NCBI GenBank assembly: GCA_934133005.1
Contig: CAKPAI010000001.1
Span: 298,769-362,768 of the forward strand
DNA length: 64,000 bases
Direction: 5' to 3'
Source of the DNA: an uncultured Clostridia bacterium
Lineage (GTDB): Bacteria; Bacillota; Clostridia; TANB77; CAG-508
Positions 1,821 to 38,610 of this stretch are shown here, piece after piece. The position numbers and the translations under genes are program-made. The notes beneath the pieces are model-generated. The model searched no databases. It was not told the DNA's origin and was given only the letters and a program-made list of their open reading frames with translations. Every line of letters begins with the position of its first letter. The stretch's first letter is position 1.

Positions 1821-1837
1821 GACCTTCGGGTTATGAG
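1821..1837 (+). repeat. att-core-like direct repeat copy 1 (GACCTTCGGGTTATGAG); proposed left junction of integrative element 1
   Basis: 17/17 identity with 23421-23437. 13/13 with 38598-38610. Lies between last chromosomal-looking gene and first island gene. Confidence 0.6.
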
Positions 1838-1938
1838 CGAGACCTGACCACTTTTTGTAAGTTTGTGGAAATTAGAGTTTTTGTTGGTATTTCAGTATTT
1901 ACAAGAGTTTTTATTTACAGAACATTTGTGTATTTTTA

Positions 1939-1979
1939 GGGCATTTTTTGAGAGGATTTTACCCAATTTTTACCCAATT
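1939..1979 (+). repeat. Arm-type direct repeat A1 (GGCATTTT..GAGG..TTTTACCCAATTTTTACCCAATT) ~100 bp inside left core
   Basis: Near-identical ~40-bp copy at ~23260-23299. Contains tandem TTTTACCCAATT x2. Position just inside core is as expected for integrase arm-binding sites. Confidence 0.55.
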
Positions 1980-2065
1980 CATATAGTACGTTTGTTCCGG
2001 TATTTTAAGCTCTTGTAAAGGATAATTTTATTGATAAAAATTTTAATTTTTGGAGGATTTAGATT

Positions 2066-2359
2066 ATGAATAATTTTAGAGAAGTTAATGATAATATTTT
2101 AAGAGATTGGTTAGAATTTAGAGAGGAGACTTTGTGTTGCACTTTAAGTGCTGAGGATAAAAAGCATTTTGTTTATTTTGATGAGATTTCTGGAAAAATT
2201 TTAAAGAATGTTCCAGAACAAAATAAAAAGTATGTCAAGAAACAACTTGATTTGCTTGATGAGAATTTTATGGATTATATTTTCTATTGGAATGAGAAAT
2301 ATTATAGGAATGGTTTTTGTGATGGTGTGCAGCTGATTGGTGGATGTTTTAATAATTAA
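2066..2359 (+). CDS. Hypothetical small protein (97 aa)
   Basis: ORF preceded by GGAGGA RBS (tttggaggatttagattATG). Followed by a 34-bp perfect palindrome. No recognisable domain. Confidence 0.5.
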   Translation: MNNFREVNDNILRDWLEFREETLCCTLSAEDKKHFVYFDEISGKILKNVPEQNKKYVKKQLDLLDENFMDYIFYWNEKYYRNGFCDGVQLIGGCFNN

Positions 2360-2372
2360 TTAAATATCTTTT

Positions 2373-2406
2373 CCAAAGTTTTTTCAAAATTTTGAAAAAA
2401 CTTTGG
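2373..2406. terminator. 34-bp perfect palindrome CCAAAGTTTTTTCAAAA|TTTTGAAAAAACTTTGG (hairpin/terminator or protein-binding site)
   Basis: Reverse complement equals itself over 34 nt. Immediately downstream of the 2066-2359 ORF. T-rich flank. Confidence 0.6.
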
Positions 2407-2461
2407 ATTTTTATGTACTTTTTTCATCTTTTTGAAAAAAGTATCAAAGTAATTGTACAAC

Positions 2462-2487
2462 AAAAGGCGAGTTGATTCTCGCCTTTT
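2462..2487. terminator. GC-rich hairpin AAAAGGCGAGttgattCTCGCCTTTT; bidirectional intrinsic terminator at 3' end of helicase gene
   Basis: 8-bp GC-containing stem with T/A runs on both sides. Overlaps stop of the 2486-5266 minus-strand gene. Confidence 0.6.
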
Positions 2488-5266
2488 ATATTGGATCTAT
2501 TTTTCTTTTAATAAGGATAACATCTTTATTGTCTTCAATATGTTTTATAGTCGATATGATTTTATTTTGGCATTCTGGTGACCAATATATTTTTAATTTT
2601 TCTTTTGCTCTTGTTATTGATGTATAAAAAATGCTATGTGTAATTAGTTCATCTATCTCATTTGTTATTATAACTTTAACAGAATTATATTCCAATCCTT
2701 GTGATTTGTGTATAGAAACAGCATATGCAACTGAAAAAGGTACAATTGTTGTTAAATCTGAATCATCATCCTCGTCAGCGTTTCTATACTTATTAACATA
2801 GAATTTTACAATTGATTTATTATTTTCAGATTCTCCTACCAATTCTAAATCTAAATATTGAATTTCCAATTCATTAATCACTTTATCTATTTCTACTGAA
2901 AACCAAAATCTAAATTCATCCTCTTCTATATCTACGATTCTTCCTTTTAAATTATTATATATTACTGGTGAAAATCTATTAGTATCTCCAAATATAATTG
3001 GATCTCCTACTTTATAAGTACCTAAATCTAGAACTATTGATTTGTTGTTATTGTCACTTTGCAAATAATAATTTATACTATTTATTCCATATAGTCCATC
3101 ATAATTTAGACATAGTATAATTTCATCTTCATCCTGCTTCTTAAATATTTCTTCACCAATTTCTTCTGAAAATTCTTTCTTTACTAACATTTCATCAACT
3201 CTATCATCGCCATTTCTGACCAATTCCCATAAATCTAACAATTCTTGTTTTGTACTTCTCCATGTAAAGTTTAATTCAAATACTGATGTTTGCTTTACTA
3301 ATTTTTTTGATAGTGTAAACCAGTTTCCAAATGTAATAGATTCAATCTGATAAATATCTCCAGCAAGCAATATAGCACTAAAATGTGCTTTTTCTAAAAT
3401 TTGTCTCATATCCGAATTACTAATTATACTACATTCATCAATTATTAAAATGTCGCATTCAGTATCATTATTAGACTCACTAATAAATTTATGTACTGTC
3501 ATAAAATTAGAATTTTGATTCTTTACATTACTCTTTAGATTTTCAACAGCTGAATTTGTATTAGCTAAACATATTTTCTTTTCATTATTATAAAAATATG
3601 TCAAATGTTTAATTAGTGTAGTTTTACCTGTTCCAGCTGCTCCATATATTAAGGCAACTGCACTATTTTCATACATATTTAACAATATATTTTCTTTTTC
3701 TGGACAATTAATCGCGTAAATTCCTTTATTTATAAAACTTTGAAATGATGCTTTATAGCCTTTTATCCCTTTATTTGTCAAGGAATTTAACTTATTAATT
3801 ATATTAATAGTATCATTTTCATATCCATGAATATACAAATTATTATTCTCTATTACCAAGCATCTGTTAGGTTTATGTTTATAATAGATTTTATTATTAT
3901 AAGACTCTACCAATGTTGGAATGTCTCCAAAATTTTTGACTTCATCTATGCTTGTATATAATTTATTATTTTGCTCTGTGTTTTTCTTGACATAACTTGC
4001 CAATAATTCATCATCTCTTCCTTCTATAGGTATTGTCTCTATCAAATCATATCTTGTTGGATTATGATTTATTAATGATGATGCATAAGGCATTTCTTCA
4101 AATGGAATACAACCCCATTGTAAATATAAATCTGATAAAATAGAACAACTATCTGTTGCAAGCTGATTTTTTATGATTCTATTATTGCAATTATATAATA
4201 AGTATCTTAATACAACATTTCCTTTTCTATTATTTTTTATATAATATCTACATTTATCAATTAAGTCTAATATTCCAGTAGTTGTAGAATTATATTTTAT
4301 TTTCTCTTTTGCTTTATCATAATATGTATTATTCATTGTTGCTAAATCTAATAAACTGTATTGTCCTCTTGTTAATAATCTCATAACCTCTAAATATTCT
4401 TTATTATTAGCCTTATAATTTTTATTTATTCCAAAAATTTTATAAAAATTATTTATTTCACATTCTCTTATTGCGACAGACCAATTGTTTATTATATTTA
4501 TTGACATATCTCTTCCAAGAATATTTACTTTTCTTTTAACAATAGATAACTTTATTGAATAATTTGGCATAATATGCATTCTTGTAAATGCTATTATTCT
4601 ATCATACTTATTAACTTTATCTTTAGCTGGTGACAGAGTGACTTCATAATAAATTTTTCCATTAACAAAAAAAGTTTTTATTTTTTGCACATAATATTTA
4701 TCTCCATTGAATTGAGCAGATGTATTAATTGGAACTTGTTTTATTACATCAGCAACTTTTTTATAGTAATCACTAAAAGTACTATCTAAATCAACAGGAA
4801 AATCAGTTATATTATTTAAAATATCTATGTTATAAATTATCTTCATATAATCTTTTAATAATATTAGATATTTATAATATTTAAGCATTAACCTTTCAGC
4901 AGAATCATCATTTTCAACGTAATGTGATCTAGATATTTGTAAATAATAATGAAATCTTTCAATAAATTTTATATTTCCCTTACATTTTATATCATCTAAT
5001 GCTATTCTAACTGTTTTATTATCATAATTAACAGTTTCTGTTTTTCCTGTTAAATATATCTTAACAGCAATATATTCTACAAAAGTTCTTAATGCATTTA
5101 ATAAATTTTGAGATAAAAATCCACGATCATTATCCGAAAATTTATTTATATTTCGTTCAATATTTGAATTAGCTTCCATTATTCTCTTATCTATACTATT
5201 AAAATTATATTTTTCTTCAATTTTTATCATCTTACTTAATCCTTTCTTGTATAATGTAAAAAGCAA
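2486..5266 (-). CDS. Large (926 aa) protein: ~500-aa N-terminal region of unknown function fused to RecD/Pif1-like SF1 helicase (AAA_30 + UvrD_C_2-like)
   Basis: Walker A LIYGAAGTGKTTLIKHL. Walker B ILIIDECSII. C-terminal VSIHKSQGLEYNSVKVII, the characteristic RecD-like UvrD_C_2 motif. N-terminal half has no recognisable motif. Confidence 0.7.
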   Translation of the reverse strand: MLFTLYKKGLSKMIKIEEKYNFNSIDKRIMEANSNIERNINKFSDNDRGFLSQNLLNALRTFVEYIAVKIYLTGKTETVNYDNKTVRIALDDIKCKGNIKFIERFHYYLQISRSHYVENDDSAERLMLKYYKYLILLKDYMKIIYNIDILNNITDFPVDLDSTFSDYYKKVADVIKQVPINTSAQFNGDKYYVQKIKTFFVNGKIYYEVTLSPAKDKVNKYDRIIAFTRMHIMPNYSIKLSIVKRKVNILGRDMSINIINNWSVAIRECEINNFYKIFGINKNYKANNKEYLEVMRLLTRGQYSLLDLATMNNTYYDKAKEKIKYNSTTTGILDLIDKCRYYIKNNRKGNVVLRYLLYNCNNRIIKNQLATDSCSILSDLYLQWGCIPFEEMPYASSLINHNPTRYDLIETIPIEGRDDELLASYVKKNTEQNNKLYTSIDEVKNFGDIPTLVESYNNKIYYKHKPNRCLVIENNNLYIHGYENDTINIINKLNSLTNKGIKGYKASFQSFINKGIYAINCPEKENILLNMYENSAVALIYGAAGTGKTTLIKHLTYFYNNEKKICLANTNSAVENLKSNVKNQNSNFMTVHKFISESNNDTECDILIIDECSIISNSDMRQILEKAHFSAILLAGDIYQIESITFGNWFTLSKKLVKQTSVFELNFTWRSTKQELLDLWELVRNGDDRVDEMLVKKEFSEEIGEEIFKKQDEDEIILCLNYDGLYGINSINYYLQSDNNNKSIVLDLGTYKVGDPIIFGDTNRFSPVIYNNLKGRIVDIEEDEFRFWFSVEIDKVINELEIQYLDLELVGESENNKSIVKFYVNKYRNADEDDDSDLTTIVPFSVAYAVSIHKSQGLEYNSVKVIITNEIDELITHSIFYTSITRAKEKLKIYWSPECQNKIISTIKHIEDNKDVILIKRKIDPI

Positions 5267-5302
5267 AATAATTCTGTAATATAATTACTATTATTTTGCT
5301 TT
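5259..5302. terminator. Hairpin AAAGCAAAATAAT...ATTATTTTGCTTT downstream of fic-like gene
   Basis: 11-bp inverted repeat arms with T-run on minus strand after the stem. Confidence 0.45.
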
Positions 5303-5310
5303 TCTTTAGT

Positions 5311-6246
5311 TTATTTATTTCCAATATAATATTTAATCATTTCTGTGTATTGATCCTGCGCATTTAAACAAGTATCTATTAAATATCCTTTTTCTTTATT
5401 AGTTTGATATTGATTTAGTCCCCTATAATAAAATAGTTTTTCTTTATCTAAAATGATAAATGGTACAATATTATTTTTCAAACATTCTTTAAATGCAATT
5501 ATTCTACCAACTCTACCATTACCATCTTGAAATGGATGTATCTTTTCAAATTTTGCATGAAATTCTATTATTTCATTTATTGTAACTTGTTTCAAAGACT
5601 CATACCATTCTAACAATTTTTTCATATCTCTTTCAACATTTTTAGGATCTGTAGTTTTTAGTCCTCCTACTTCATTAGCTAATTTTTTATAATCTCCCAC
5701 TACAAACCAATCTTTTCTGCTATCTGATGTTCCCTCTTTTAATATTTTGTGAAATTCTTTTATCATCTTTTCAGTTAACTTTTTACTTGCTATATCTAAC
5801 ATATAATCAACTAATTTAAAATGATTAGCCGTTTCTAATACATCATCTAAATCTGTAATAGAATCTTTTTCTGCCAATAAAGTGTTAGTCTCATAAATAT
5901 ATCTAGTCTGATCTTCTGTGAGCTTACTTCCTTCAATATGATTTGTATTATATGCAAATGTAATTTGAGTATTATGATATAGATTTCCTTTTAATTTCAT
6001 ATTTTTTTGTTCTCTTAACACTTCTAAAATATTTATTTTAGATATATCAAAATCATCTTCTTTAATCAATTCATCAACAGAAATTTCAAATATTTCAGCT
6101 AACTTTTTTAATGATTCGATATTAGGTTCTAATGTTCCAGATTCATATTTAGAAACTGTAGCTGGTTTCACTCCTAATGATTCTGCAATTTCAACTTGCG
6201 TCATGTTTTTATTTTCTCTATATAATTTTATTTTTTCTCCTAACAT
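5311..6246 (-). CDS. HTH(XRE)-Fic family protein (Fic/Doc AMPylation-type fold, N-terminal helix-turn-helix)
   Basis: N-term MTQVEIAESLGVKPATVSKYESG (XRE HTH). C-terminal Fic motif IHPFQDGNGRVGR matching HPFx[DE]GNGR. Confidence 0.85.
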   Translation of the reverse strand: MLGEKIKLYRENKNMTQVEIAESLGVKPATVSKYESGTLEPNIESLKKLAEIFEISVDELIKEDDFDISKINILEVLREQKNMKLKGNLYHNTQITFAYNTNHIEGSKLTEDQTRYIYETNTLLAEKDSITDLDDVLETANHFKLVDYMLDIASKKLTEKMIKEFHKILKEGTSDSRKDWFVVGDYKKLANEVGGLKTTDPKNVERDMKKLLEWYESLKQVTINEIIEFHAKFEKIHPFQDGNGRVGRIIAFKECLKNNIVPFIILDKEKLFYYRGLNQYQTNKEKGYLIDTCLNAQDQYTEMIKYYIGNK

Positions 6247-6370
6247 AATAAAAACTCTCCTTTTTGATTATAATAATATTATATCATATCATTTCCAAAA
6301 AAGAAAGTTTTTATTTAATTGTTTTATAATTATTTCTAAAATAGAATCATATATTTTGTTATATACTAAC

Positions 6371-7822
6371 TTAATAAAATAAATTTTCTTTCATTTCAAT
6401 AACCTTTTTATCTATTTCTGAAAAATCATATACAGATGCAAAAATTACTTGATATTCTTTAAAATCACGCTCTAATATCTTTATCATAGCAATAGAAGCA
6501 TTACTTGTTAATTCATTAGTTCGTGGTGAATCAATTATTATAGGTAAATTCAGTCCATATCTATTTTTAATTTCTAATAAATATGCAATCTTAAAAGAAA
6601 ATGACATATGTGTCAAAATTCTTCCTGTTTTGCCTTTTAATTTATTTGTTAATACAAATTTAGAACTATCGCCAATATACTCATCAAATTTTAATTCTTT
6701 GGCATATTTTTTTATAGTATTATAAATTGAATTCAAATACATGTTATTTTCTGATAATATATTATGCAATTCATTCATCAATTTTTGTTTTCTTCTTGTT
6801 AATTGCCCAATTATTTTATCCATTTGTTTTTCATTAATATTGACATCTTTTAGCATCTCATCAACTTCTTCAGCAACAGTTTTTACATTAAATAAAATAT
6901 TTCTATCATTTAGCTCATCTTCAATTTTATTTATTTCGTTTTTAATTTTACCTAAATTTATTTCTAATTCTTTTTTTCTTGTTTCATAGAAAATCTGATT
7001 TTCATTATAATTTAATATATTATCTTTAGCTAGTTTAACGGAATTATCATTAGAAATTTTTACATATATATCTAACTTTTCAAGGTAGTCAACTAATTTT
7101 TTATTATCTTTTAAAATGCCACTAACATCTTTAATATCATTTTTTATTTCAGCCTCTCTTATTTTAAGTAATTTTAATTGACTATATAACTCGTTATCAT
7201 CATTCTTGGTATATGATGTAACTTCTTCAATAATATTTTCACTTTTATATTCCGCAATACTTTTTAGTGATCTATATTTTCGTATTTCATCTTCTATCTT
7301 TTTTATTTCATTATTAATTGAAGAAACATCTTTATCGGATAATGCAGAAATAAAATCTTCTATATTAAATCTGTTTTTTCCTATAATTATTCCTCTATTT
7401 AGAAGAGTCCATCCTTTTTCTTGGTCAATATAAAAAATAGCTAATAAATTATTTAGAATCATAATTTCACTTATGTTAAAAATTTTAGAATGTAGCTCAT
7501 ATAATTGTTCAGGTACTATATAAGTTATTTTCTCATTTTTTTCATTCAAAATAACAATATCTCCTTTTCGTTCAAGTGAATATTGTTGTTCATTTTCTAT
7601 TATATCTATATGTATAAAAAAATCATCAAAAGTCTTTATTCCATCTGTTGCAGGTATGTTATATCCTAGTCCGAATAGTATTGCTCTTAGCAAAGTTGTT
7701 TTTCCTTTTGAATTTTCTTTACTATAAATCAAATTAATCTTATCATCAAAAACAAACTCTCTATATTCATCTTTCCTTTGAATAATAACTTTTCTAATTT
7801 TCATATTTGTTAGCCCTTTCAA
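6371..7822 (-). CDS. lmuB: SMC/ABC-like coiled-coil ATPase; candidate Lamassu LmuB (DUF3732-like)
   Basis: Walker A SKGKTTLLRAILFGLG near N-terminus. ~300 aa of K/E/I/N-rich coiled-coil. C-terminal signature-like KGKTGRILTHMS and Walker B LPIIIDSP. Probable true ATG start at ~7804 (MKIRKV...), 5 nt after upstream stop. Confidence 0.5.
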   Translation of the reverse strand: MKGLTNMKIRKVIIQRKDEYREFVFDDKINLIYSKENSKGKTTLLRAILFGLGYNIPATDGIKTFDDFFIHIDIIENEQQYSLERKGDIVILNEKNEKITYIVPEQLYELHSKIFNISEIMILNNLLAIFYIDQEKGWTLLNRGIIIGKNRFNIEDFISALSDKDVSSINNEIKKIEDEIRKYRSLKSIAEYKSENIIEEVTSYTKNDDNELYSQLKLLKIREAEIKNDIKDVSGILKDNKKLVDYLEKLDIYVKISNDNSVKLAKDNILNYNENQIFYETRKKELEINLGKIKNEINKIEDELNDRNILFNVKTVAEEVDEMLKDVNINEKQMDKIIGQLTRRKQKLMNELHNILSENNMYLNSIYNTIKKYAKELKFDEYIGDSSKFVLTNKLKGKTGRILTHMSFSFKIAYLLEIKNRYGLNLPIIIDSPRTNELTSNASIAMIKILERDFKEYQVIFASVYDFSEIDKKVIEMKENLFY

Positions 7823-8819
7823 ACATTTGCATTATATTTCCTTTTCTTATGAATATTTTTTTTGCAATAATTTTTGAGCAAGCTTTCTCTATAGTTTCCA
7901 TATTGCTATCTTTATTATTTTTAAAAACTATATCGTATATTTCGTTTTCATATTTAATAACAAACTGATTGCTTCTTATTTCTTTATCTTCGATTTTAGC
8001 TTTCATTATTAAATTGCTAATCTTATTATATACATCAAAGTCAGCTTCTTTATAGTTTATTATCCTATCATACGTATCTAATGCTTCAAAAAAAGTTTCT
8101 TCTTCAATTTCCATACTTTCGTCAAACTTTATTGAGTTTCCATCGCCTAATTTTAAGATTAAAAGTCTCCACAAAACATCTTCCTTTTTAAATTTTAATT
8201 TCATATTATTTTGAGTTGCATTATGTAGTGCTTCTGACTCTAACATTTGTAGGAATCTATTTTTATATGGTAGTAAATCCGAACTGATAAAAGTTAAAAA
8301 GTCTTCAATTTTGGCAATTATATATTTCTGTTTTGTTTCTTTATCTTCACCAAAAAAAGGGACTTTAGCAATTATTAATTTATCCCTATTTATGTTCTTT
8401 TGTAATTGATTAAGTTGAATATCAATTTTTTCTTTTGAAGCTAAAGATAATTCATTATATTTGAAAAATGATACTAATTCAAATTCATTTGTTCCAGAGT
8501 TTAATGGGTTCGGTTCTAAATTACTTATATATATTAGGCTTTCTGAATCATTATCATTAACATCTGATAATGATTCCAAAGCCTTTCTTAATTTTGTTGA
8601 ATATGAACTCGTATCACCATCATTAATATTTTGTTTTGATTTTGCTTGTGCATAAATTTTTTTACTATTATTTAATGAAATTTCAATATCTTCCTTTTCT
8701 CCTTCTATCTTCATTTCTTTAAATTTTCCAAAATATTTTATCATTAAATATATAGCTATATTAATTTGAAATTGCCATCCAAAAGCACTTGCACTTGCAT
8801 TTCTATTTATAGCTTTCAT
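7794..8819 (-). CDS. lmuA: PD-(D/E)xK-type nuclease-like protein; candidate Lamassu LmuA (DUF4297/Cap4-nuclease-like N-terminus)
   Basis: N-terminal ASAFGWQFQINIAIYLMIKYF followed by IEGEKEDIEISLNN...YAQAKS, a G-aromatic-x-aromatic-Q then E-x-E-D then Q-x-K pattern. Directly upstream of and operonic with the SMC-like ATPase. Confidence 0.45.
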   Translation of the reverse strand: MKAINRNASASAFGWQFQINIAIYLMIKYFGKFKEMKIEGEKEDIEISLNNSKKIYAQAKSKQNINDGDTSSYSTKLRKALESLSDVNDNDSESLIYISNLEPNPLNSGTNEFELVSFFKYNELSLASKEKIDIQLNQLQKNINRDKLIIAKVPFFGEDKETKQKYIIAKIEDFLTFISSDLLPYKNRFLQMLESEALHNATQNNMKLKFKKEDVLWRLLILKLGDGNSIKFDESMEIEEETFFEALDTYDRIINYKEADFDVYNKISNLIMKAKIEDKEIRSNQFVIKYENEIYDIVFKNNKDSNMETIEKACSKIIAKKIFIRKGNIMQMFERANKYEN

Positions 8820-8904
8820 TTATATTACCTTCTACTCATAAAAATTTAAATTTGGCAAAATTTTAGTAATTTTAATTATTTTTATTATAAGTCAATTTTT
8901 AAAT

Positions 8905-9924
8905 TTATTCTTCCACTTCAATTACAGGTATAAATAATTTCTTTAATTTTATGGTATCTTTAAATTTCTCTGACATATCATCATAGTATTTTAAAATTAA
9001 ATCTACTAATTCACTTCCATTAATAGATTTTATTATTGGATGCTTTTCTAAATATATTTTAGCATTTTTTGCATAATCTGATAAAGTTACAAATAAACCA
9101 TAATCTCCTTCGTCCATAGTTCCTTTTAATGATTGTACTGTAGATTCTGTGATATTTCCATCTTGGCTTTTTACTTGTACAATAATTCTTGGTGGCAATT
9201 CATCTTTATATGCAATAATGTCTTTTCCATTATCTCCTCCGTGAGGACTAATTTTTGTTCTATATCCCATTGCATTTAATAAATCTGCGACAACATCCTC
9301 CAATTCATATCCTTTAAAATTTTTATTTAACTCTTTTAATACATAATCTTTGGTACTTTCTAATATAGTCTCTGAAGTCGCAAATACATTATCGTCATTT
9401 TCTTGATTATTTTTTACCTTCTTTCCATTGTGAAGAGCATTTATAAATTCATCTGCATAATGCCTTACTTGAAAAAATGATAAAAATGATCCTATTTCAT
9501 ATAATGCACCTTGCGAAAATTCTTCTCTTGGTAATTTTTTTAACCATTTTACTTTTCTCTTTTGATTATATTCTGTTTCTCTACTATCAAAGAAATATTC
9601 CCCTTCAATTTGTCCAATATTAATCATTCTATTAAATTTTGTTGGATATATCACATAATCTCCTATTTTAGCTTCATTAACAAATCTAAATAGTTGTCCT
9701 GCAGAACCTGCTATAGATTGTTTAGATTTGTTTGGATAAACTTTATCATAGGCCTTATAATAAGATTCTCTATCTGTATCTATTGTGGATAAATCTCCCA
9801 TTTCATGCCAACCTATAGCTATGACTTCATCTTGTAATAATAAATTTTCATTATTCGTATTATGAATTCCCCAAACTATTATTTCCTCACTCATTATTTT
9901 TCCTTTTATGTTATATTTAATCAC
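8905..9924 (-). CDS. mrr: Type IV (modification-dependent) restriction endonuclease Mrr (Mrr_N winged-helix + Mrr_cat PD-(D/E)xK)
   Basis: Catalytic-domain motif ISPHGGDNGKDIIAYKDELPPRIIVQVKSQ, matching GxDxGxD ... VQxK of Mrr_cat. N-terminal ~110 aa resembles Mrr_N. Confidence 0.8.
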   Translation of the reverse strand: MIKYNIKGKIMSEEIIVWGIHNTNNENLLLQDEVIAIGWHEMGDLSTIDTDRESYYKAYDKVYPNKSKQSIAGSAGQLFRFVNEAKIGDYVIYPTKFNRMINIGQIEGEYFFDSRETEYNQKRKVKWLKKLPREEFSQGALYEIGSFLSFFQVRHYADEFINALHNGKKVKNNQENDDNVFATSETILESTKDYVLKELNKNFKGYELEDVVADLLNAMGYRTKISPHGGDNGKDIIAYKDELPPRIIVQVKSQDGNITESTVQSLKGTMDEGDYGLFVTLSDYAKNAKIYLEKHPIIKSINGSELVDLILKYYDDMSEKFKDTIKLKKLFIPVIEVEE

Positions 9925-10070
9925 TTAAATATGACATATTCTCCTTTTATTCTACTTTTTATATTATTTTAACCTATATTTCTTATTAATGTTTTATTAT
10001 ACTTGAAACTTCTTTGTATTTATACTTTAGCTTGCTCATTTTATATATTTGTTCAACTTAAATTTTTCTC

Positions 10071-23515: not shown

Positions 23516-23548
23516 TATTATTTAATAATAATTCTATTATTTTTTAGG

Positions 23549-23576: not shown

Positions 23577-23579
23577 CTT

Positions 23580-27308: not shown

Positions 27309-27454
27309 TATTACACATTCCCTTCAATAGTTTTATATTTTCATTTTTTGTCTTTTGTGTAATATTCTCATTTTTATATTAGCAATTCTATCATATTTTT
27401 CCAATTTTGTATATATTTTCCACAAATTTGCCAGACGTCTGGCAAATTCAATTT

Positions 27455-28774: not shown

Positions 28775-28958
28775 AACTATTGTAATTTTTTCAATATCGT
28801 TTTATTATTTCCATCAGAAGCAGATAAAAATTTTATCTTCGCTTATGTACATTGAAAACTAAATAGTCCAGATATACACAAATAAAGAAACTTCTACCTG
28901 GCTAACGTGATGTAAAGGGGTAGCTCTCCTAGATGGAGGGAATGGAAACAGAACCATT

Positions 28959-29234
28959 ATGGTATTAAATACATATATAGGGACGTTAAACAAGAAAAAA
29001 AAATTTTTGAGGAAAGGAGAACAAATACCTATGAGAAGTACATTTAAAACAAACGAAGAATTACCTGCAACATTGTCAGCAACAGATATTAGTAAATACT
29101 TAGGAATTTCGAAAGCTAATTCATATCAATTAATGAATCGTTCAGATTTTCCTACACTTAAACTTGGTAAACGAAAATTAGTACCAAAAGATAAATTTTT
29201 AATATGGGTAAATAACAATACAAATGTTATTTAG
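28959..29234 (+). CDS. Excisionase-family HTH DNA-binding protein (probable true start ~29031, MRSTFK...)
   Basis: LSATDISKYLGISKANSYQLMNRSDFPTLKLGKRKLVPKDKFLIWV, typical excisionase/HTH_17-like. RBS gaggaaaggagaacaaatacctATG before internal Met. Confidence 0.65.
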   Translation: MVLNTYIGTLNKKKKFLRKGEQIPMRSTFKTNEELPATLSATDISKYLGISKANSYQLMNRSDFPTLKLGKRKLVPKDKFLIWVNNNTNVI

Positions 29235-29246
29235 AAGGAGTAACTT

Positions 29247-31172: not shown

Positions 31173-31174
31173 TA

Positions 31175-31370
31175 TTTTCTGTTACAACTGTTACATTTTT
31201 CTAAATTGCATATGGTTGTAAGAAAATATTAGTAACAATTATCTAAAATTATCTGATACAAAAATGAAACAGAATTTGTTACAACTTGTATCAGATATGT
31301 AACAAATAACGAAAGTTTATAATCAACTTATATAACTATATTCTACAGTGTTGTAACAGATGTAACAGTA
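31175..31370. promoter_or_regulatory. Candidate oriT: six copies of TGTTACA/TGTAACA in direct and inverted arrangement upstream of mobC
   Basis: tgttacaactgttaca (~31179), ttgttacaacttgtatcagatatgtaacaa (~31275, inverted pair), tgttgtaacagatgtaacag (~31348). Confidence 0.45.
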
Positions 31371-31444
31371 TTTTTATATATAATACTTCACTTCTTGCTA
31401 AATTTAAGCTATTCTTTGTAGTTTTTTATAGGCAAGATTCCTAA

Positions 31445-31921
31445 TTGTATAGACATACAATTAAATGGTTGCGTTATTGCTTTAGCAATTACGAACCATT
31501 ATATGTGGCTTTGCCACTAGATTTTACACCCAAAATTCACTTTGGGTGTTTTAATTTTGGGAGAACCCAAACCCCTTTTACAAATTTTAGAGAAAGGAAC
31601 TTAATATATATGAGAAAAAATAATAAACAAATTAATTTTAGAGTTAGTGAAAAAGATTATAACTATATAAAAAGGCAATCTGAAAAAGCTAATATAACTT
31701 TAACTGACTATTTAAAATATTCAGCACTTAACAAGAACATATATGTAATTGATGGATTAGATGATGCTTCAAGAGAACTTGCTAAAATTGGAAATAACTT
31801 AAATCAGCTAACTAGACTATGTCATCAAGGTGTTATTACTTGTTTAGATTTAAGTGAGATTAGAGAGCAGGTGAAACATATATGGCAGTTATTAAATTTA
31901 CTAACTCCAAATCAACTTTAA
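31445..31921 (+). CDS. mobC: MobC-family relaxosome accessory protein (probable true start ~31610, MRKNNKQINFRVSEKD...)
   Basis: FRVSEKDYNYIKRQSEKANITLTDYLKYSAL ... LAKIGNNLNQLTRLCH matches conserved MobC (ribbon-helix-helix start and IGNNLNQ box). RBS agaaaggaac. Confidence 0.7.
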   Translation: MYRHTIKWLRYCFSNYEPLYVALPLDFTPKIHFGCFNFGRTQTPFTNFRERNLIYMRKNNKQINFRVSEKDYNYIKRQSEKANITLTDYLKYSALNKNIYVIDGLDDASRELAKIGNNLNQLTRLCHQGVITCLDLSEIREQVKHIWQLLNLLTPNQL

Positions 31922-33132
31922 AACATATTATAAATTACATAACACAAGATGCTAAAACTACTACTGAATTAATTACAGGAAAAGATTGTACTTCTGACAA
32001 TGCCTTAGAGGAAATGCAAACTGTAAAAAATTTATATAACAAGACAACTGGCAGACAATATATTCATTTAGTACAATCTTTTTCCCCTAACGATAATTTA
32101 AGTTATGACAAAGCACATGAAATTGGATTAGAACTTGCAAAACAATATAAAGGTTTTCAAGTATTAGTAGCAACTCATACTGACAGAGAACATGTACATA
32201 ATCATCTCGTAATAAATTCTGTATCTTTTGAAGATGGTAAGAAATTTCAACAAAGTAAAAAAGATATGGAAAAAATAAAAATACATTCTAATGAATTATG
32301 TGCAAAAAATGGACTTTCCACTATTTCATTAAAAGGAAATTCAAAGGTTAGTAATAGTTTAACACTAAAAGAATATCATGTAGCAAATAAAGGTCAAAGT
32401 TGGAAAATGCAACTAATAAATGCCATTGACTATTCAATAGAAAATTCATTAACTAAAAAAGATTTCATATCAAATATGAATAGTTTAGGGTATCAAGTTA
32501 ATTGGACTGATACAAGAAAAAGTATAACTTACACTACTCCAACTGGAATGAAGTGTAGAGATAATAAATTATATGATATTAAATATTTAAAGGAGACTAT
32601 GCAAAATGAGTTTAATAGAAAATTTAAAAGAGAAAAATCAAATACCACAGCAAACACAAATGAAAGCAGAGTTTTACACAGTTCAACCAGAAACGTGGAT
32701 AACTCTTTTCAAGTGGATAGAAGATACGAAGGACAAAATCAAAAATATGGAATACAAAATGGACAAGCAAATTTCAATGGCAGACATTCTAAATACACTA
32801 AAAAAGGAACTTACAGAAACAATAAGAATACATCTGGAAGTTCAGATGATGAAATATCAAGAGGAATTGAAAGAACTACAAAAGATAAAATGGAAAAATA
32901 TATTCAAATGGATACCAATAGGTATTGTAATAGGTATTTTAGTAACCGTTCTCTGGATACATTAGTATCCCTTGCCTATTTATTTGAAAATAGACAATAT
33001 AATCAAAATAAACCTAAAAGAACAATAAGAAGTTTTAGGAGTTTAAGCAAACAAGCTAAAAAAGAATGGATTATGAAGCATAAATATTCAAGTAGTTTTG
33101 ATTGGTTTGAAGAAGATGAATGGGAAATGTAA
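31882..33132 (+). CDS. Relaxase/mobilization nuclease (MobA/VirD2-like domain, HxH motif)
   Basis: LKHIINYITQD N-terminal region. HTDREHVHNHLVINSV three-His metal-binding motif of relaxases. Overlaps mobC 3' end. Confidence 0.7.
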   Translation: MAVIKFTNSKSTLKHIINYITQDAKTTTELITGKDCTSDNALEEMQTVKNLYNKTTGRQYIHLVQSFSPNDNLSYDKAHEIGLELAKQYKGFQVLVATHTDREHVHNHLVINSVSFEDGKKFQQSKKDMEKIKIHSNELCAKNGLSTISLKGNSKVSNSLTLKEYHVANKGQSWKMQLINAIDYSIENSLTKKDFISNMNSLGYQVNWTDTRKSITYTTPTGMKCRDNKLYDIKYLKETMQNEFNRKFKREKSNTTANTNESRVLHSSTRNVDNSFQVDRRYEGQNQKYGIQNGQANFNGRHSKYTKKGTYRNNKNTSGSSDDEISRGIERTTKDKMEKYIQMDTNRYCNRYFSNRSLDTLVSLAYLFENRQYNQNKPKRTIRSFRSLSKQAKKEWIMKHKYSSSFDWFEEDEWEM

Positions 33133-33150
33133 AAAATATTTTTAACAATA

Positions 33151-33372
33151 TTGACTTTTGACTGTCATAATGTTATTATATTTATGGCAGTCAAAAAGGA
33201 GGTGGATATGACTGAGAAAAAGCTAGGTCGTCCAACTGATAATCCTAAGAATACTAAATTAACTGTTCGTGTAGATGCGGAAACATTAGAAATATTAGAA
33301 AAATATTGTAAGAAAGAAAATATATCTAAAATGGAAGGTATTCGTAGAGGAATTAGAAAATTGGACAAATAA
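33151..33372 (+). CDS. Small ribbon-helix-helix/CopG-like DNA-binding protein (start likely ~33208, MTEKKLGRPT...)
   Basis: KKLGRPTDNPKNTKLTVRVDAETLEILEKYCKKENISKMEGIRRGIRKL. RBS aaaaaggaggtggatATG. Confidence 0.5.
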   Translation: MTFDCHNVIIFMAVKKEVDMTEKKLGRPTDNPKNTKLTVRVDAETLEILEKYCKKENISKMEGIRRGIRKLDK

Positions 33373-33383
33373 AAAAGGAAATA

Positions 33384-33806
33384 GTGTTTCTGACAGTCAA
33401 TCTTATTACACTATTCCCTAGCAATACTACTTCGAAAGTAGAATTACATGAATATTATATCACATGCAATCTTCTACTTTCAACAAAAATGAAAATTTTA
33501 ATGAAAGAAGGAGGATTTTTTATGCCTATCAATCAAAATTTATTTGAAGAAGAACTTGATGAGTTCTTTAATAATCTAATCAATTCATATCTAAACTATT
33601 TATCACAAGAAGATGAAATTTATAAGAAGCTTGGTAAAAATAAAAATTCTTGTATTGAAAATTTTCTAAAGGACTTTCCTAATACTAATGATTCTTTAGA
33701 AAAACTTATCAATTATATTTATTTAGAAAATGAATATGAATCTGATGTCTTATATAGACAAGGTTTTATTGATTGCTTTAACTTTCTAAAACTTCTTGAT
33801 TACTAA
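33384..33806 (+). CDS. Hypothetical acidic protein (probable start ~33522, MPINQ..., 95 aa)
   Basis: RBS gaaggaggattttttATG. No motif recognised. Immediately precedes integrase. Confidence 0.45.
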   Translation: MFLTVNLITLFPSNTTSKVELHEYYITCNLLLSTKMKILMKEGGFFMPINQNLFEEELDEFFNNLINSYLNYLSQEDEIYKKLGKNKNSCIENFLKDFPNTNDSLEKLINYIYLENEYESDVLYRQGFIDCFNFLKLLDY

Positions 33807-35109
33807 ATCAAGGAGGTTCAATATGTCAAAAAGAGGTCAAAATGAAGGCAGTATTAGACAAAGAAAAGATGGTACTTGGGAAGCTAGATATACTGTAGGT
33901 GTAAAAGAAAATGGAAAACCTAACAGAAAATCTGTATATGCTAAAACTAGAAAAGAAGTTAAAGATAAATTAAATGCCATTTTGTTATCTCTAAAGAATG
34001 GAACTTATACTAATTCAAATAATATATTATTCATAGATTGGCTTAGCAAATGGCTTGAAACTTATGCTAAGCCTAATATAAAACTTGCTACATATACAAG
34101 TTATGAAACATATATACGAGGTCATTTGAAACCTTATTTTTCTAATATAAAATTACAATCTGTTTCAGCAGAAATGCTACAAAAATTCTTTAATTATAAA
34201 CAGAACAATGGTAGATTAGATAATCGTGAAGGTGGCTTATCAGCTAAAACTTTGAAAAATATGTATAATATGCTACATGCTTCATTTAAACAAGCATATA
34301 TTAATGGATTAGTTCAAACAAATATCGTTGAAACTATAAGAACTCCTAAAATTTTCAGAAAAGAAATGAGAGTTTTAACTAGAGAAGAACAAAATAAATT
34401 AATTCATGTTGCTAGAAATTATAGATTAGGAATTGTTGTTATATTAGATTTATTTACAGGTATGAGATTGGGTGAAATCCTTGCTTTGAGATGGTGTGAT
34501 GTTGATTTAAAAGGTCAAAATTTAATTGTTAGAAATAGTATTAAGAGATTATCTACCCATGAGAAAGCATCTAAAAATCAGAATAAAACTAAATTAATTT
34601 TAGATACTCCAAAATCTCAAACAAGTTATAGAGAAATACCGCTTCTCTCTCCTATTGTTAAAGAATTAAAAACTCACAAGCAAAAGCAAAAAATTGAAAT
34701 CCAATTAGCTGGTAAATCCTATATAAATAAAGATTTTCTATTTTGTAATCAAATTGGAGAACCTTATGATCAGAAAACTTTTTGGAAAGAGTATTCTTTA
34801 ATGTTAATAGATGCCGGTTTACGAGATAAAAAAGAAAAACCAATTAGAAATAAAATTAAAAAGAATATAAAATCTAAACCCAAATCTCATGCTGATAAAG
34901 TTCAAGTTACATTCCATACTTTAAGACATACTTTTGCAACTAGAGCAATTGAGCAAGGTATGGAAATTCCTGTACTTAGTAAAATTCTAGGACATGCTGA
35001 TATAAGTACCACTTTGAATAAATATTGCCATGCTATTCCAGATAGGAAGCGTGAAAATATGGAGAAAATTGAGTGTTTATATGATGATAGCCTAGATGGT
35101 GGAATCTAG
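33796..35109 (+). CDS. int: Tyrosine site-specific integrase 2 (probable ATG start 33823, MSKRGQNEGSIRQRKDGTWEARY...)
   Basis: AP2-like arm-binding N-terminus. C-terminal HTLRHTFATRAIEQG...LGHADISTTLNKYCH. Strong RBS caaggaggttcaatATG. Lys-rich insertions relative to integrase 1. Confidence 0.85.
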   Translation: MITKSRRFNMSKRGQNEGSIRQRKDGTWEARYTVGVKENGKPNRKSVYAKTRKEVKDKLNAILLSLKNGTYTNSNNILFIDWLSKWLETYAKPNIKLATYTSYETYIRGHLKPYFSNIKLQSVSAEMLQKFFNYKQNNGRLDNREGGLSAKTLKNMYNMLHASFKQAYINGLVQTNIVETIRTPKIFRKEMRVLTREEQNKLIHVARNYRLGIVVILDLFTGMRLGEILALRWCDVDLKGQNLIVRNSIKRLSTHEKASKNQNKTKLILDTPKSQTSYREIPLLSPIVKELKTHKQKQKIEIQLAGKSYINKDFLFCNQIGEPYDQKTFWKEYSLMLIDAGLRDKKEKPIRNKIKKNIKSKPKSHADKVQVTFHTLRHTFATRAIEQGMEIPVLSKILGHADISTTLNKYCHAIPDRKRENMEKIECLYDDSLDGGI

Positions 35110-35135
35110 GCTATTTTGTGTAAAATACTATAATA

Positions 35136-35561
35136 TTAAATTTCATCTGGAGTAAAAACTTCAATTCCATTTTCTATTAAAAGGTCTGCCAATATACCAT
35201 TTCCATCTATTAATTTATTATCAAAATTTCCACTATAAATTTTATTAACTCCACAAGACGGGCTTCTTGGCTGAAGTATCGCTTTATTGATATTTAAGCT
35301 TTTAGCTAATTTTAATACTTCTATTGCTCCTCTTTCAAAATTTTCTGTAACATCATTTCCTTCATTATCAATTGCATATCTTTTTCCATCAATAACTTTA
35401 AGTTCCACAGGTTTTCTTGGTGTCTTTAACCCTCCTAGTTGTTCTGGACAAATTGGTATAGCTTTTCCTTCCTTTACTAAATCAAAAATCTTTTTATTAA
35501 AATTATTGCCTCCACTATATTTGCAATTTATTCCTACTAAACAAGCACTTACAAGTATCAT
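35136..35561 (-). CDS. DUF523 (YbbK-like) family protein
   Basis: MILVSACLVGINCKYSGG...PICPEQLGGLKTPRKP...PRSPSCGV conserved Cys pattern of DUF523. Confidence 0.6.
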   Translation of the reverse strand: MILVSACLVGINCKYSGGNNFNKKIFDLVKEGKAIPICPEQLGGLKTPRKPVELKVIDGKRYAIDNEGNDVTENFERGAIEVLKLAKSLNINKAILQPRSPSCGVNKIYSGNFDNKLIDGNGILADLLIENGIEVFTPDEI

Positions 35562-35953
35562 TACATTAGACCTCTTTCTACTAAATTTGGTATAACATGT
35601 TCTCCTAAAATACTACCTACTTTTATTCCATTTTTCTTATAATCTTTATCAATCCATATTGCTTCTTTAATTTCATTTTTGCATTTTATTTTTCCTTTTA
35701 TTTCAGCTAAATATGTTTGGACATGAATAGGCTCATCTGAAAAACAAGCAATATCATCATATCCACCTATAAATTCAGCATTTACTAATTCTACATTTAG
35801 CTCTTCATCTAGTTCTCTTTTTAATGTTTCAAAATCTGTTTCATTTCCTTCACGTTTTCCTCCTGGAATTATACATTCTTCCCTATTATTCTTTTTTCTT
35901 TGAACAAGGACTTTTTTATCTTTTAAAATTACTCCACCAACTTTATCTATCAT
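35561..35953 (-). CDS. Nudix hydrolase (MutT-like)
   Basis: Nudix box GGKREGNETDFETLKRELDEELNV. Confidence 0.8.
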   Translation of the reverse strand: MIDKVGGVILKDKKVLVQRKKNNREECIIPGGKREGNETDFETLKRELDEELNVELVNAEFIGGYDDIACFSDEPIHVQTYLAEIKGKIKCKNEIKEAIWIDKDYKKNGIKVGSILGEHVIPNLVERGLM

Positions 35954-36017
35954 ATTTTTATTACCTTTCTATCATTTTATACTTTTAAATCAGAACATTC
36001 TTTCTTCTTATTTCTTT

Positions 36018-36824
36018 TTATAATTCAATTTCATCCAAATCATTTGGAACATACACATTACCATTAAAATATTCTTTTGCTTCTTTAGTAAATAATTCTT
36101 TTCTTGTTTCTATATTATTATCGATGCAATGCCATAATAATAAGTTCTTTATATTTAAAGTATTCATTGCAATAGAAACATCTTTTACTGTAGAATGATT
36201 CTTTTCATGTGGTTTTACCTTATATTTGTCTTTTTCTAAACACATTGCTTCATGTAGTACCCAATCTGAATTTTCTATTTTTGAATACACATTTTTACTA
36301 CAAGGAACGTCTCCTAAAAAAGCTAACGTTTTTCCAGAATTTAGGATTATCTTAAATCCATACTGAATACATTCGATAGATTCTGTATCAATTGCTTCTA
36401 CTTCATAACCTATAATATTAAATTTTTTACCATTATCACAAAAATAATATTTCACAATTTCTTTATATAAATCTTCGTGTGCTTTATGAAATGTTGCACT
36501 AATAAACATATCAATTATCTGTTTTATTTCTTCAGTACAATATATATTTAATATACCATCATAATTACTTTTTCTATGTTGTTGCATGATATATCTTAAA
36601 AGTGGTATTATTCCCCATAAATGATCTATGTGTTTATGAGATATAAAAATATCATGTATTTTATTTATATTAATATTTTTGGCTTTTAAATGATTTAATA
36701 TTTGATTACCACTTCCAGTATCAATCAATAAGTAATTACCGTTTGTATTTTCAAGTAACGCACTTAAACTATAACAATTTATTGTTAGTCCACTACCAGT
36801 TCCTAAAACTATTAACTTTTCCAT
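36018..36824 (-). CDS. Metallo-beta-lactamase-fold hydrolase
   Basis: HKHIDHLWG (HxHxDH) motif. GTGSG N-terminal start typical of MBL/RNase Z-like fold. Confidence 0.75.
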   Translation of the reverse strand: MEKLIVLGTGSGLTINCYSLSALLENTNGNYLLIDTGSGNQILNHLKAKNININKIHDIFISHKHIDHLWGIIPLLRYIMQQHRKSNYDGILNIYCTEEIKQIIDMFISATFHKAHEDLYKEIVKYYFCDNGKKFNIIGYEVEAIDTESIECIQYGFKIILNSGKTLAFLGDVPCSKNVYSKIENSDWVLHEAMCLEKDKYKVKPHEKNHSTVKDVSIAMNTLNIKNLLLWHCIDNNIETRKELFTKEAKEYFNGNVYVPNDLDEIEL

Positions 36825-36842
36825 ATTTTTTTTACCTTTTTC

Positions 36843-37295
36843 TTAATCTTTTAAAATATCAACAATATCAATAGGTGCAACTAAATTATTATTTTGGTTA
36901 ATTACTGCTGTTCTAACATAATTTCCTCTTAACATACTTTCCATTTGATTAACTATTTCATCATAATCAAACCATTTAACATCTAAAATTTCTTCTTTAT
37001 CAAACTCAATATTTTCATTAATAAGTTTAGCATTAAAAACAATCATTACAAATAAATCGTCTTCTAAAATTCTATTAGCAACATAGCAAACTCCGTCTAG
37101 TTTAACATCACAACCTGTTTCTTCTTTTATTTCTCTAATTGCTCCTTGCTCTAAACTCTCGTTAAAATCTAAATGTCCTGCTGGAAAATTCCATTTTTCA
37201 TAACATTTTTTCTTCGCTTCTTGTACTAACAAATATTTTCCTTCTTTTTCTATAATTCCACCTACTATTACTTTCATAATTTTGCTTTCCTCCAA
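36843..37295 (-). CDS. Nudix hydrolase
   Basis: Nudix box GHLDFNESLEQGAIREIKEETGCD. Confidence 0.8.
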   Translation of the reverse strand: MEESKIMKVIVGGIIEKEGKYLLVQEAKKKCYEKWNFPAGHLDFNESLEQGAIREIKEETGCDVKLDGVCYVANRILEDDLFVMIVFNAKLINENIEFDKEEILDVKWFDYDEIVNQMESMLRGNYVRTAVINQNNNLVAPIDIVDILKD

Positions 37296-37306
37296 TTATA
37301 TTTCTT

Positions 37307-37837
37307 TTAAATATCTAAATAATACTCAAGTATTCTTCTATCTCTTAAAACAACAAATTTTGTTGCATAAACATCTTCATATTGTGAGTCTTTTAAATCA
37401 TTTATGCAATTTTGTATTAATTCTAATGCCTCAATAGGCTCAACCCATAATAATTTTGCTCCTTCAACTTTTTCTTTTTGCGTCAAATTTAATTTTTGAG
37501 TATCTTCAATAACCTTTGATACAAAAATATATGAGATTTGTTTAAAATTGTTTTTATATTTGTATTCTTCAGTAACACCTAAATATTTTATTATCTCAAC
37601 TTTGCATCCTGTTTCTTCTGCAACTTCACGATAAAAAGCATCTTTTGGATTTTCATTTTCTTCAATGCCACCTCCTGGCAATTTATATTCGTGTTTATTT
37701 GCTTTATTAAAAATTGCAATTTTTCCATCTTCTCGAATTACTATTCCTCTTGCACCTTTTCTTAATTGTGGCTTTTCCATATCACAAAATTTAAGTCCAA
37801 AGTCATTATCTGTTATTTTTGTAATTAATTTTTCCAT
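37307..37837 (-). CDS. Nudix hydrolase
   Basis: Nudix box PGGGIEENENPKDAFYREVAEETGC. Confidence 0.8.
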   Translation of the reverse strand: MEKLITKITDNDFGLKFCDMEKPQLRKGARGIVIREDGKIAIFNKANKHEYKLPGGGIEENENPKDAFYREVAEETGCKVEIIKYLGVTEEYKYKNNFKQISYIFVSKVIEDTQKLNLTQKEKVEGAKLLWVEPIEALELIQNCINDLKDSQYEDVYATKFVVLRDRRILEYYLDI

Positions 37838-37884
37838 TTAACTCCTCCTTAATATTATTATTTTTTAAATAATAATTTTAAACA

Positions 37885-38406
37885 TTACAAACTTCTAATA
37901 TATTGGAACAATTTTTCAAATTCTTCTTTATGTATTAAAAGTCCCTCTGCTTTTTCTTCCACCATTTTTTCTAGATCCTTATATAAAACATACTTAACCT
38001 CTGATACTTCATCATCTTCAAAAGTGTATTCTTCTATTTTTTTATTACATCTTAATAAATACACATAAGCAAATTCCATATTTTTAGGATTTTTTGTGCT
38101 TTTAATCGTTGCAATATATTGTAAATCTTTTTCTTCTGCTTCAACTCCTAATTCTTCTTTTAGTTCCCTTATTGCTCCATCAATTACAATTTCTCCTGCT
38201 TTTATATGTCCTGCTCCAGATATGTCCCAGCAATTAGGATGTGATTTCTTATTTGCACTTCTTTTTTGTAATAATAATTCATTTTTGTCATTTATAATCC
38301 AAACATGTGCTGTTCTATGAAAATCGCCTTCTTCATGTGCTTTCCCCTTTTCTTTTATTTGTCCTGTTGGATTATTATTTTCATCAAATATATCTATATA
38401 TTCCAT
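37885..38406 (-). CDS. Nudix hydrolase (paralog of 41639-42163)
   Basis: Nudix box GAGHIKAGEIVIDGAIRELKEELGV. N-terminal MEYIDIFDENNNPTGQ similar to MSEFWDIYDENRNKTGR of the 41639 gene. Confidence 0.8.
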   Translation of the reverse strand: MEYIDIFDENNNPTGQIKEKGKAHEEGDFHRTAHVWIINDKNELLLQKRSANKKSHPNCWDISGAGHIKAGEIVIDGAIRELKEELGVEAEEKDLQYIATIKSTKNPKNMEFAYVYLLRCNKKIEEYTFEDDEVSEVKYVLYKDLEKMVEEKAEGLLIHKEEFEKLFQYIRSL

Positions 38407-38493
38407 AAGCTCTCCTCTTTCCTTATTGCTATTACTATATCACAAATTCCTTAATTATTCCATAGTTTACCATTAATTCTATTACTTTTCATC

Positions 38494-38519
38494 GTGGTAG
38501 GGGTATTTTACTGGGGTAA
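38494..38519 (+). repeat. G-rich direct repeat G2 (GGTAGGGGTATTTTACTGGGGTAAA)
   Basis: 14/14 GGTAGGGGTATTTT plus second GGGGTA, matching 23551-23574. Confidence 0.55.
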
Positions 38520-38597
38520 AGTACAAAAATAAGACCACTTATTTTCTTGTAGTCTTACTCCTATCTATATTCTATAATTTAATTTTTATTTACTTGT

Positions 38598-38610
38598 TTC
38601 GGGTTATGAG
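38598..38610 (+). repeat. att-core-like repeat copy 3 (TTCGGGTTATGAG, 13 bp; 14 with following A)
   Basis: Identity with the 3' 13 nt of the 17-bp core at 1821 and 23421. ~80 bp to the right of G2 repeat, mirroring the core-to-G1 spacing at the other end. Confidence 0.5.

Follow-up and report, generated by a model that had tools for sequence, protein, structure and literature searches.

Tandem accretion of integrative and conjugative elements (ICEs), integrative mobilizable elements (IMEs) and decayed cis-mobilizable elements (CIMEs) at one attachment (att) site has been described, as for ICESt1/ICESt3-CIME in Streptococcus thermophilus and for IME_Sag2603_tRNAlys, which lies with a decayed ICE in S. 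agalactiae, and tandem pairs are known whose integrases are less than 30% identical yet have the same specificity (PMC5704250). Here we analysed a 64-kb stretch of DNA (the window; contig CAKPAI010000001.1, positions 298,769 to 362,768) that matches the Clostridium sp. CAG:389 reference at 99% on the amino acid (aa) and 98.8% on the nucleotide (nt) level and is assigned to this species on that sequence match. The window is chromosomal, with genes for leucyl-tRNA synthetase (LeuRS), AdhE, AddB and RNase III on its right. It very probably contains a head-to-tail array of two complete integrative elements, E1 and E2, which have unrelated cargo and integrases that share a core derived from the initiator transfer RNA (tRNA-fMet), and which lie in a scar without a tRNA gene. 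The array is a known kind of tandem accretion, found in a new host and made of new element families.

Like the described tandems, E1 and E2 are arranged head to tail at a shared att site, have integrases less than 30% identical, may have decayed neighbours and use the 3' part of a tRNA as target; unlike them, they are found in an uncultured gut Clostridium, the target is tRNA-fMet, the array site lacks a tRNA gene, one of the partners no longer has an arm that restores the tRNA, the array includes no conjugative element, and most of the cargo serves anti-phage defence (PMC5704250). Salmonella genomic island 1 (SGI1) forms tandem arrays and uses a secondary attachment site (PMC2297512). The present system resembles it in comprising an integrative mobilizable element, tandem arrays and non-canonical sites, whereas SGI1 arrays are copies of one element at thdF and here two unrelated elements share a tRNA-derived core (PMC2297512). 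Pipolins are reported to be exchangeable defence platforms on integrative elements (PMC11551731). The likeness lies in a direct-repeat-flanked element with a variable slot of defence systems (cyclic-oligonucleotide-based anti-phage signalling system (CBASS), restriction-modification, Mrr, Fic, KAP) in otherwise identical backbones, and the difference in the lack of PolB, the backbone here being integrase, excisionase, DUF6076, replisome organiser and DnaC-like ATPase.

The two families are previously undescribed and come from uncultured human-gut Clostridia. With 99.6% identity between E1 backbones but only 78-88% between the host genes that flank them, these families appear to shuttle CBASS, restriction-modification, Mrr, Fic, KAP, AbiE and other anti-phage systems between species. 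Their exact att cores and boundaries should aid the annotation of metagenome-assembled genomes (MAGs), and the array offers a clean natural case in which distantly related integrases share an att site and one element can no longer repair its tRNA target. Understanding of the mechanism is unchanged, as this is a well-known route for bacterial genomes to gain foreign DNA.

Core repeats and the units they bound

The original prediction started from a 17-mer at about 1821 and 23421 whose last 13-14 nt recur at about 38598, and this pattern was borne out. The 17-mer GACCTTCGGGTTATGAG is exact at 1821-1837 and 23421-23437; no further copy with up to three mismatches was found in the window, and 0 of 100 shuffles contained a match. 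Its last 11 nt (CGGGTTATGAG) recur as a third copy at 38600-38610, with 0.21 copies expected, and the stretch in common with the 17-mer, its extent read by eye, is 13 nt long, giving TTCGGGTTATGAG at 38598-38610 as core copy C. All three cores are on the + strand. As had also been proposed, each interval has its own tyrosine integrase (int1 and int2, 26% identical) and its own family of arm-type repeats: the 22-nt TTTACCCAATTTTTACCCAATT, exact at 1958-1979 and 23278-23299, in E1, and TAGGGGTAT, at 23553, 23565 and 38498, in E2, where the copies lie within a 44-nt repeat (80% identical, 23521-23564 and 38466-38509). E1 thus bounded extends over 1838-23437 (21.6 kb; integrase, excisionase, replication module and defence cargo), and E2 over 23438-38597 (15.2 kb; two cargo slots). 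The features at their ends are as follows.

1821-1837, + strand: core copy A, attL of E1, the exact 17-mer; its left flank is not tRNA-like
1838-2065, + strand: E1 left arm with tandem arm-type repeats, TTTACCCAATT twice at 1958-1979; the 22-nt repeat recurs in the right arm
2066-2359, + strand: p97, conserved first gene at E1-like left ends; homologues adjoin the core and arm repeats in L018, L055, L056, L061-L063, L066 and L067
21824-23017, + strand: int1, E1 tyrosine integrase with Phage_integrase and SAM_3 domains
23018-23437, - strand: E1 right arm, with arm repeats at 23278-23299, a hairpin at 23348-23392 and the tRNA-fMet 3' half at 23393-23437, which includes core copy B at 23421-23437
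23438-23579, + strand: E2 left arm, TAGGGGTAT twice at 23553-23573; 92-94% identical to the left arm of E2 relatives in L055-L058
33823-35109: int2, E2 tyrosine integrase with Phage_integrase and SAM-like domains
38407-38610, + strand: E2 right arm (TAGGGGTAT at 38498, then CTGGGGTAA) and core copy C; 89.6% identical to L055 13823-14015

The middle core had been read as the anticodon-loop end of a 45-nt tRNA-Met(CAT)-like 3' fragment, with no intact tRNA at any of the three sites. Consistent with this, ARAGORN detected no intact tRNA in the window, and Rfam gave no match there at its gathering score; a weak, sub-threshold tRNA T-arm match lies in the E1 right arm. The fragment at 23393-23437 on the - strand (CTCATAACCCGAAGGTCGTAAGTTCGAGTCTTACCCCCGCAACCA) is identical to the 3' 45 nt, from anticodon loop to CCA, of an intact tRNA-Met(CAT) in the relative locus L029 (numbers of this form denote the 97 fetched loci that were compared). 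This tRNA starts with CGCGGGG, ends with CCCCGCAACCA and has a C1xA72 mismatch and a GGG/CCC anticodon stem. As these are established criteria for initiator tRNAs, we assign the source of the fragment to tRNA-fMet, a refinement of the earlier reading. The core is made up of the tRNA-fMet anticodon loop, the 3' strand of the anticodon stem and the variable loop, and the end repeats that match the tRNA are 17 nt long in E1 and 13 nt long in E2. Directly after the tRNA 3' fragment, at 23348-23392 and within E1, a hairpin with a T-run behind it looks like the terminator of the tRNA gene copied along with its 3' half.

Each family also occurs independently of the window. The int1 protein was found unchanged on many metagenome contigs in at least six different right contexts, and the E1 backbone (window 15013-23437) is 99.5-99.9% identical in L015-L018 and L022. 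In these E1 copies the right flanks differ every time, and divergence begins exactly after ...GGGTTATGAG (...TTATGAG; window 23437). For E2, the closest relative, an element with an integrase 95% identical to int2, is present on contigs L055-L059. L055, L056 and L057 share only the segment from 775/777 to 14015, 99.6-99.98% identical, which is a 13.2-kb unit with GACCTTCGGGTTATGAG at its left and TTCGGGTTATGAG at its right end and with three different left and four different right contexts around it. Its arms resemble those of the window at 92-94% on the left (23421-23575) and 89.6% on the right (38419-38610). Because this relative ends with the same right arm and 13-nt core, site C is the true right end of E2, although it lies 3.5 kb past int2; the homology of the Clostridium sp. 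CAG:389 reference to the window also ends exactly at 38610.

Between the integrase and the right arm, inside the core-bounded unit of L055-L057, lies an HD-GNAT-NUDIX-HD block, more distant E2 members have AAA_21 and AbiE genes after the integrase, and minus-strand cargo follows the integrase directly in every member of the family. Since every member carries cargo between integrase and attR, we assign the window's block of NUDIX and metallo-beta-lactamase (MBL)-fold genes to E2 as cargo and regard cargo in this position as a hallmark of the family. The 44-nt repeat mentioned above (D4; 23521, 38466) was considered as the true att site of E2 and rejected, as family members break at the tRNA-derived core.

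The target could be read from relatives. In L029, an E3 relative of E1 adjoins an intact tRNA-fMet beside ComEA and PBP5; L089 and L090, which hold members of the E2 family with integrases 60% identical, end in an intact tRNA-fMet that takes its 3' half from the right arm of the element. In all three the integrase gene lies next to the rebuilt tRNA. In L063 a native 3' half with point mutations follows an E1-like left end, and in L055 an E2-like left end abuts a tRNA 3' half without an integrase beside it. The target of the families is therefore the anticodon-loop region of tRNA-fMet. Across about 35 distinct junctions in our census, the core was found only at element junctions or inside tRNA-fMet genes, and IMG/VR added six further integrase/3'-half/core junctions, several of which have a right flank similar to E1-like left arms.

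Tyrosine integrases that target the tRNA anticodon loop are reportedly one of the sublocation classes set out by Williams in Nucleic Acids Res in 2002. As in that class, attP here contains about 45 nt of the 3' portion of the tRNA, running from the anticodon loop to CCA, with the junction at that loop and the integrase gene beside the rebuilt tRNA in the three loci just named. Unlike in that class, the tRNA 5' half is absent in most copies found, since what lies past the core is another element or a scar. The E2 subfamily of the window keeps only 13 nt of the tRNA in five contexts, never adjoins the tRNA 5' half and is unable to restore the gene, whereas the E2-family members with 60% identical integrases have the full tRNA 3' half in their right arm.

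Alternative readings of the array

Several observations weigh against an array of two complete elements in a core-bearing scar. The E1 left end, seen in one context only, is placed by three features, namely the 17-nt repeat, the arm repeats and conserved p97. A tRNA 5' half is lacking in the window, so that its original target is one that we infer. The contigs examined yielded neither an empty site nor a circular form, an attP junction or an excision junction, and each one from the species has both E1 and E2. On the side of E2, the NUDIX block of the Clostridium sp. CAG:389 reference (L037) meets another gene precisely at the int2 stop, with homology to the window ceasing 6 nt inside the stop codon region, which at first sight suggested a chromosomal block. 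In addition, NUDIX3-NUDIX2-MBL is conserved in 17 related MAG species.

The constant company of E1 and E2 within the species would fit a single composite that arrived, and moves, as a 36.8-kb unit via the outer cores (1821 x 38598), and composite transfer of accreted elements is documented (PMC5704250). However, L015-L018 and L022 have E1 but no E2, members of the E2 family stand in L056 and L057 with no E1 to their left, and an E2-like element precedes an E1-like one in L055 and L056, with E1 and E2 behaving as separable units. We therefore regard the composite as unlikely; it would bear on history only and leave the identity of the parts unaffected. In L017 and L018, E1 is followed by another E1-like element.

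Much less probable is that E2 ends just after int2 (~35110), with the NUDIX/MBL genes belonging to the host chromosome and the 13-nt match at 38598 being chance or an unrelated scar. The L037 junction speaks for it, as do the housekeeping-like nature of the genes and their occurrence in the 17 related species with other flanks. Against this, the 95% relative has the same right arm and 13-nt core 2.7 kb past its integrase, with the HD-GNAT-NUDIX-HD block inside and four outer flanks, all family members carry cargo directly after the integrase, and no core-like sequence is present at 35100-35140. The L037 junction, moreover, keeps the last bases of int2 and truncates an open reading frame (ORF) for a TIM-barrel (AP-endonuclease-2-like) protein, as in a deletion derivative or misassembly. 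Finally, recurrence of the 17-mer could in itself suggest a dispersed repeat family unrelated to element ends, one of the cases named in the original prediction as refuting it, but this can be dismissed, as the window holds only three copies and every copy in the 97 loci lies at an element junction or in a tRNA-fMet gene.

Landing site and proposed mechanism

No tRNA-like sequence was found at either outer flank of the array; the left flank of site A was considered as a decayed tRNA 3' end (8/9 T-arm matches) and found unconvincing, with no Rfam match there. Two genes stand just outside the outer cores.

1236-1640, - strand: p134, just outside the E1 left end; 82% nt and 76% aa identity with the integrase-adjacent gene of the related E3 elements L027-L033, without a Pfam domain
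38703-39308, - strand: p201, just outside the E2 right end; its homologues (64-83% aa) are found at E1-like left ends, adjoining p97 homologues, arm repeats and the core

No integrase is left beside p134, a probable remnant of an earlier element (E0). Beside p201 neither p97 nor the arm is present, and its homologues make this gene a probable remnant of another E1-like left end (E4). The window holds no additional cores or backbone genes. On the simplest reading, at about an even chance, two older related elements left relics on either side of E1 and E2, which occupy a scar where the core was retained. Unlike L029, L089 and L090, the window has no rebuilt intact tRNA at the integrase-proximal junction, and the array is therefore placed in a scar and not in a tRNA gene.

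Homologues of the flanking genes, tried as a route to insert-free relatives, turned out to be cargo genes of related elements. Exact-protein look-ups of p134, p201, p97, the relaxase and the 2-thiouracil desulfurase returned only the window arrangement, and neither an E2 attP junction nor an E2 copy beside a tRNA 5' half came up in scans of IMG/VR.

In lambda-type tyrosine integrases, arm- and core-binding domains assemble on attP and strand exchange takes place in a 6-8-bp overlap; directionality is conferred by an HTH_17/excisionase protein. By analogy, each integrase would bind the arm-type repeats of both arms together with the core, and strand exchange would occur in or beside the 7-nt anticodon loop (TTATGAG). 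The crossover is placed there because every family junction loses identity exactly at the loop edge (the 5' edge of CTCATAA). Integration at a shared core would yield arrays in any order, and E1, which carries the full tRNA 3' half, would rebuild the tRNA upon entering the gene. If the elements are still mobile, the predicted attP junctions are CGAACTTACGACCTTCGGGTTATGAGCGAGACCTGACC for E1 and TTTACTTGTTTCGGGTTATGAGAAATGGAATGC for E2, and the chromosome would read CGAACTTACGACCTTCGGGTTATGAGATTTCATAAAAC with E2 excised, GGTTAGACTGACCTTCGGGTTATGAGAAATGGAATGC with E1 excised and GGTTAGACTGACCTTCGGGTTATGAGATTTCATAAAAC with both excised.

The original prediction envisaged two different elements that integrated one after the other into the same target. 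Its discrete, core-bounded mobile units stand; the target in the window is, in our reading, a core-bearing scar, and E1 and E2 probably entered it one after the other. The order of E1 and E2 integration cannot be told, because both orders predict the present junctions. As the E2 subfamily has lost the tRNA-restoring part of the arm (13 nt as against the full 3' half in its 60%-identical relatives), its entry into a real tRNA-fMet gene would inactivate that gene. We tentatively suggest, at somewhat less than even chance, that the array is now independent of the tRNA gene and that the E2 subfamily depends on cores that were seeded by elements able to restore the tRNA, for instance E1, or left as scars. 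If so, each integration would copy the core and arrays would be self-propagating landing pads, which could move to and persist at tRNA-less chromosomal sites while gathering defence cargo.

Gene content and further observations

The remaining features of the two elements are listed by position, first for E1.

2486-14991, - strand: variable defence cargo (Pfam, PADLOC)
15095-18783, mixed strands: backbone, including the gene p207 (Pfam); 99.6% conserved in L015-L018 from window 15013 rightwards
16033-16887, - strand: DnaC/IstB-like ATPase (Pfam)
16850-17359, - strand: replisome organiser (Pfam)
17388-17585, - strand: excisionase (TIGR01764, E=3.5e-14)
17734-18783, + strand: DUF6076 (Pfam)
18810-21578, - strand: cargo adjoining the integrase, including p300 (Pfam)
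19734-21032, - strand: CBASS cyclase (SMODS+AGS_C in Pfam; PADLOC Cyclase, E=1.9e-163)
21033-21578, - strand: SLATT_4 effector with two transmembrane segments (2TM), partner in the CBASS pair (Pfam)

For E2 they are the following.

23580-27308, - strand: cargo slot 1, a KAP-family P-loop NTPase of 1242 aa (Pfam KAP_NTPase, E=1.8e-34; weak PifA/QatA similarity)
27455-35109, mixed strands: backbone (Pfam); 85-87% nt identical to L055-L058
27455-28696, - strand: DUF6076 (Pfam)
29031-29234: HTH_17 (Pfam)
between HTH_17 and NikA/MobC: p641
31610-31921: NikA/MobC (Pfam)
31882-33132: MobA/VirD2 relaxase (Pfam)
33208-33372: ribbon-helix-helix (RHH) protein (Pfam)
between the RHH gene and int2: p94
35136-38406, - strand: cargo slot 2, between integrase and right arm, with 2-thiouracil desulfurase, five NUDIX genes and an MBL-fold hydrolase (Pfam)

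The variable cargo of E1 comprises a superfamily 1 (SF1) helicase (PDC-S53), an HTH-Fic protein (PDC-S04/SoFic-like), PDC-M46 B and A and an Mrr nuclease (PDC-S02), together with a helicase-methylase type IIG/ISP-like restriction-modification enzyme and a methyltransferase. Cargo left of window 15004 is swapped for type I or type III restriction-modification modules in other E1 copies. E2 relatives hold Mrr/nSTAND1, restriction-modification or other genes in cargo slot 1, and their equivalent of slot 2 holds defence genes.

The MobC-relaxase part of E2 is 66% like that of small mobilizable Clostridium and Lactococcus plasmids, and Pfam detected no type IV secretion system (T4SS) or coupling-protein domain among the E1 and E2 ORFs of 90 aa or more. 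By this gene content, a relaxase and NikA/MobC without a conjugation apparatus, we class E2 as a putative integrative mobilizable element, for which a helper would therefore be needed. Pfam detected no recognisable relaxase in E1. Among the ORFs of both elements there was also no Pfam capsid, terminase, tail or packaging domain as a sign of a prophage or phage satellite, and the E1 backbone gave no meaningful match to 50,697 phage records. Neither NCBIfam nor Pfam returned a function for p641, p207, p97, p134 or p201.

DUF6076 is divergently oriented from the HTH_17/excisionase gene in the E1, E2 and E3 families whatever the cargo (window 17734-18783 and 27455-28696; L027, L055, L089, L093). 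It is apparently a conserved backbone gene and possibly a regulator of excision. The MBL hydrolase has weak, sub-threshold similarity to the anti-Pycsar Apyc1 family (23 bits; cut-off 50). The NUDIX/MBL block could serve nucleotide housecleaning, or could counter cyclic-nucleotide signalling next door to the E1 CBASS.

In L037 (FR901881.1), positions 1-4130 correspond to window 35103-38610, with the NUDIX block and right arm kept and the region from KAP to int2 replaced; beyond the core (variant CTCATGACCCGAA) lies an E2-type left arm, 68% similar. This arrangement points to array plasticity within the species, or to misassembly. L037, retrieved by scanning genome contigs with the MBL gene, was rejected as an E2-free site on the ground of its junction at int2. 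In a genome without E2 genes, a ~135-nt E2-type left arm with degenerate repeats follows the E1 core (L014:11615-11751 and L020), probably the stub of a deleted E2-like element.

To the right of the array, window 38703-46295 holds a series of small genes for enzymes on the minus strand (ASCH, deformylase, metallophosphoesterase, NUDIX, small alarmone synthetase, NT5C), which resembles the E2 cargo block and the L015/L016 flanks in character and may in part be old element cargo. In L015:11560-11800, from another species and aligned with window 39500-39740, the right junction of a 99.6%-identical E1 lies inside an ASCH homologue. This site reads GTCCTCCGGAATATAT in the window, a partial core match, and the junction reflects either secondary-site integration or integrase-mediated deletion between core and pseudo-core. 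Intact native tRNA-fMet genes lie 3.7 and 7.8 kb right of E1 in L014 (15319-15394) and L018 (19446-19521), in the orientation opposite to the E1 tRNA fragment, which could reflect inversion between inverted cores. Element cores carry CCCGA. The native tRNA-fMet of several hosts (L014, L018, L042) has the anticodon stem TTGGG/CCCAA, and integration there would therefore give a G-U pair in the rebuilt initiator tRNA; the hosts of L029 and L089 have the matching TCGGG.

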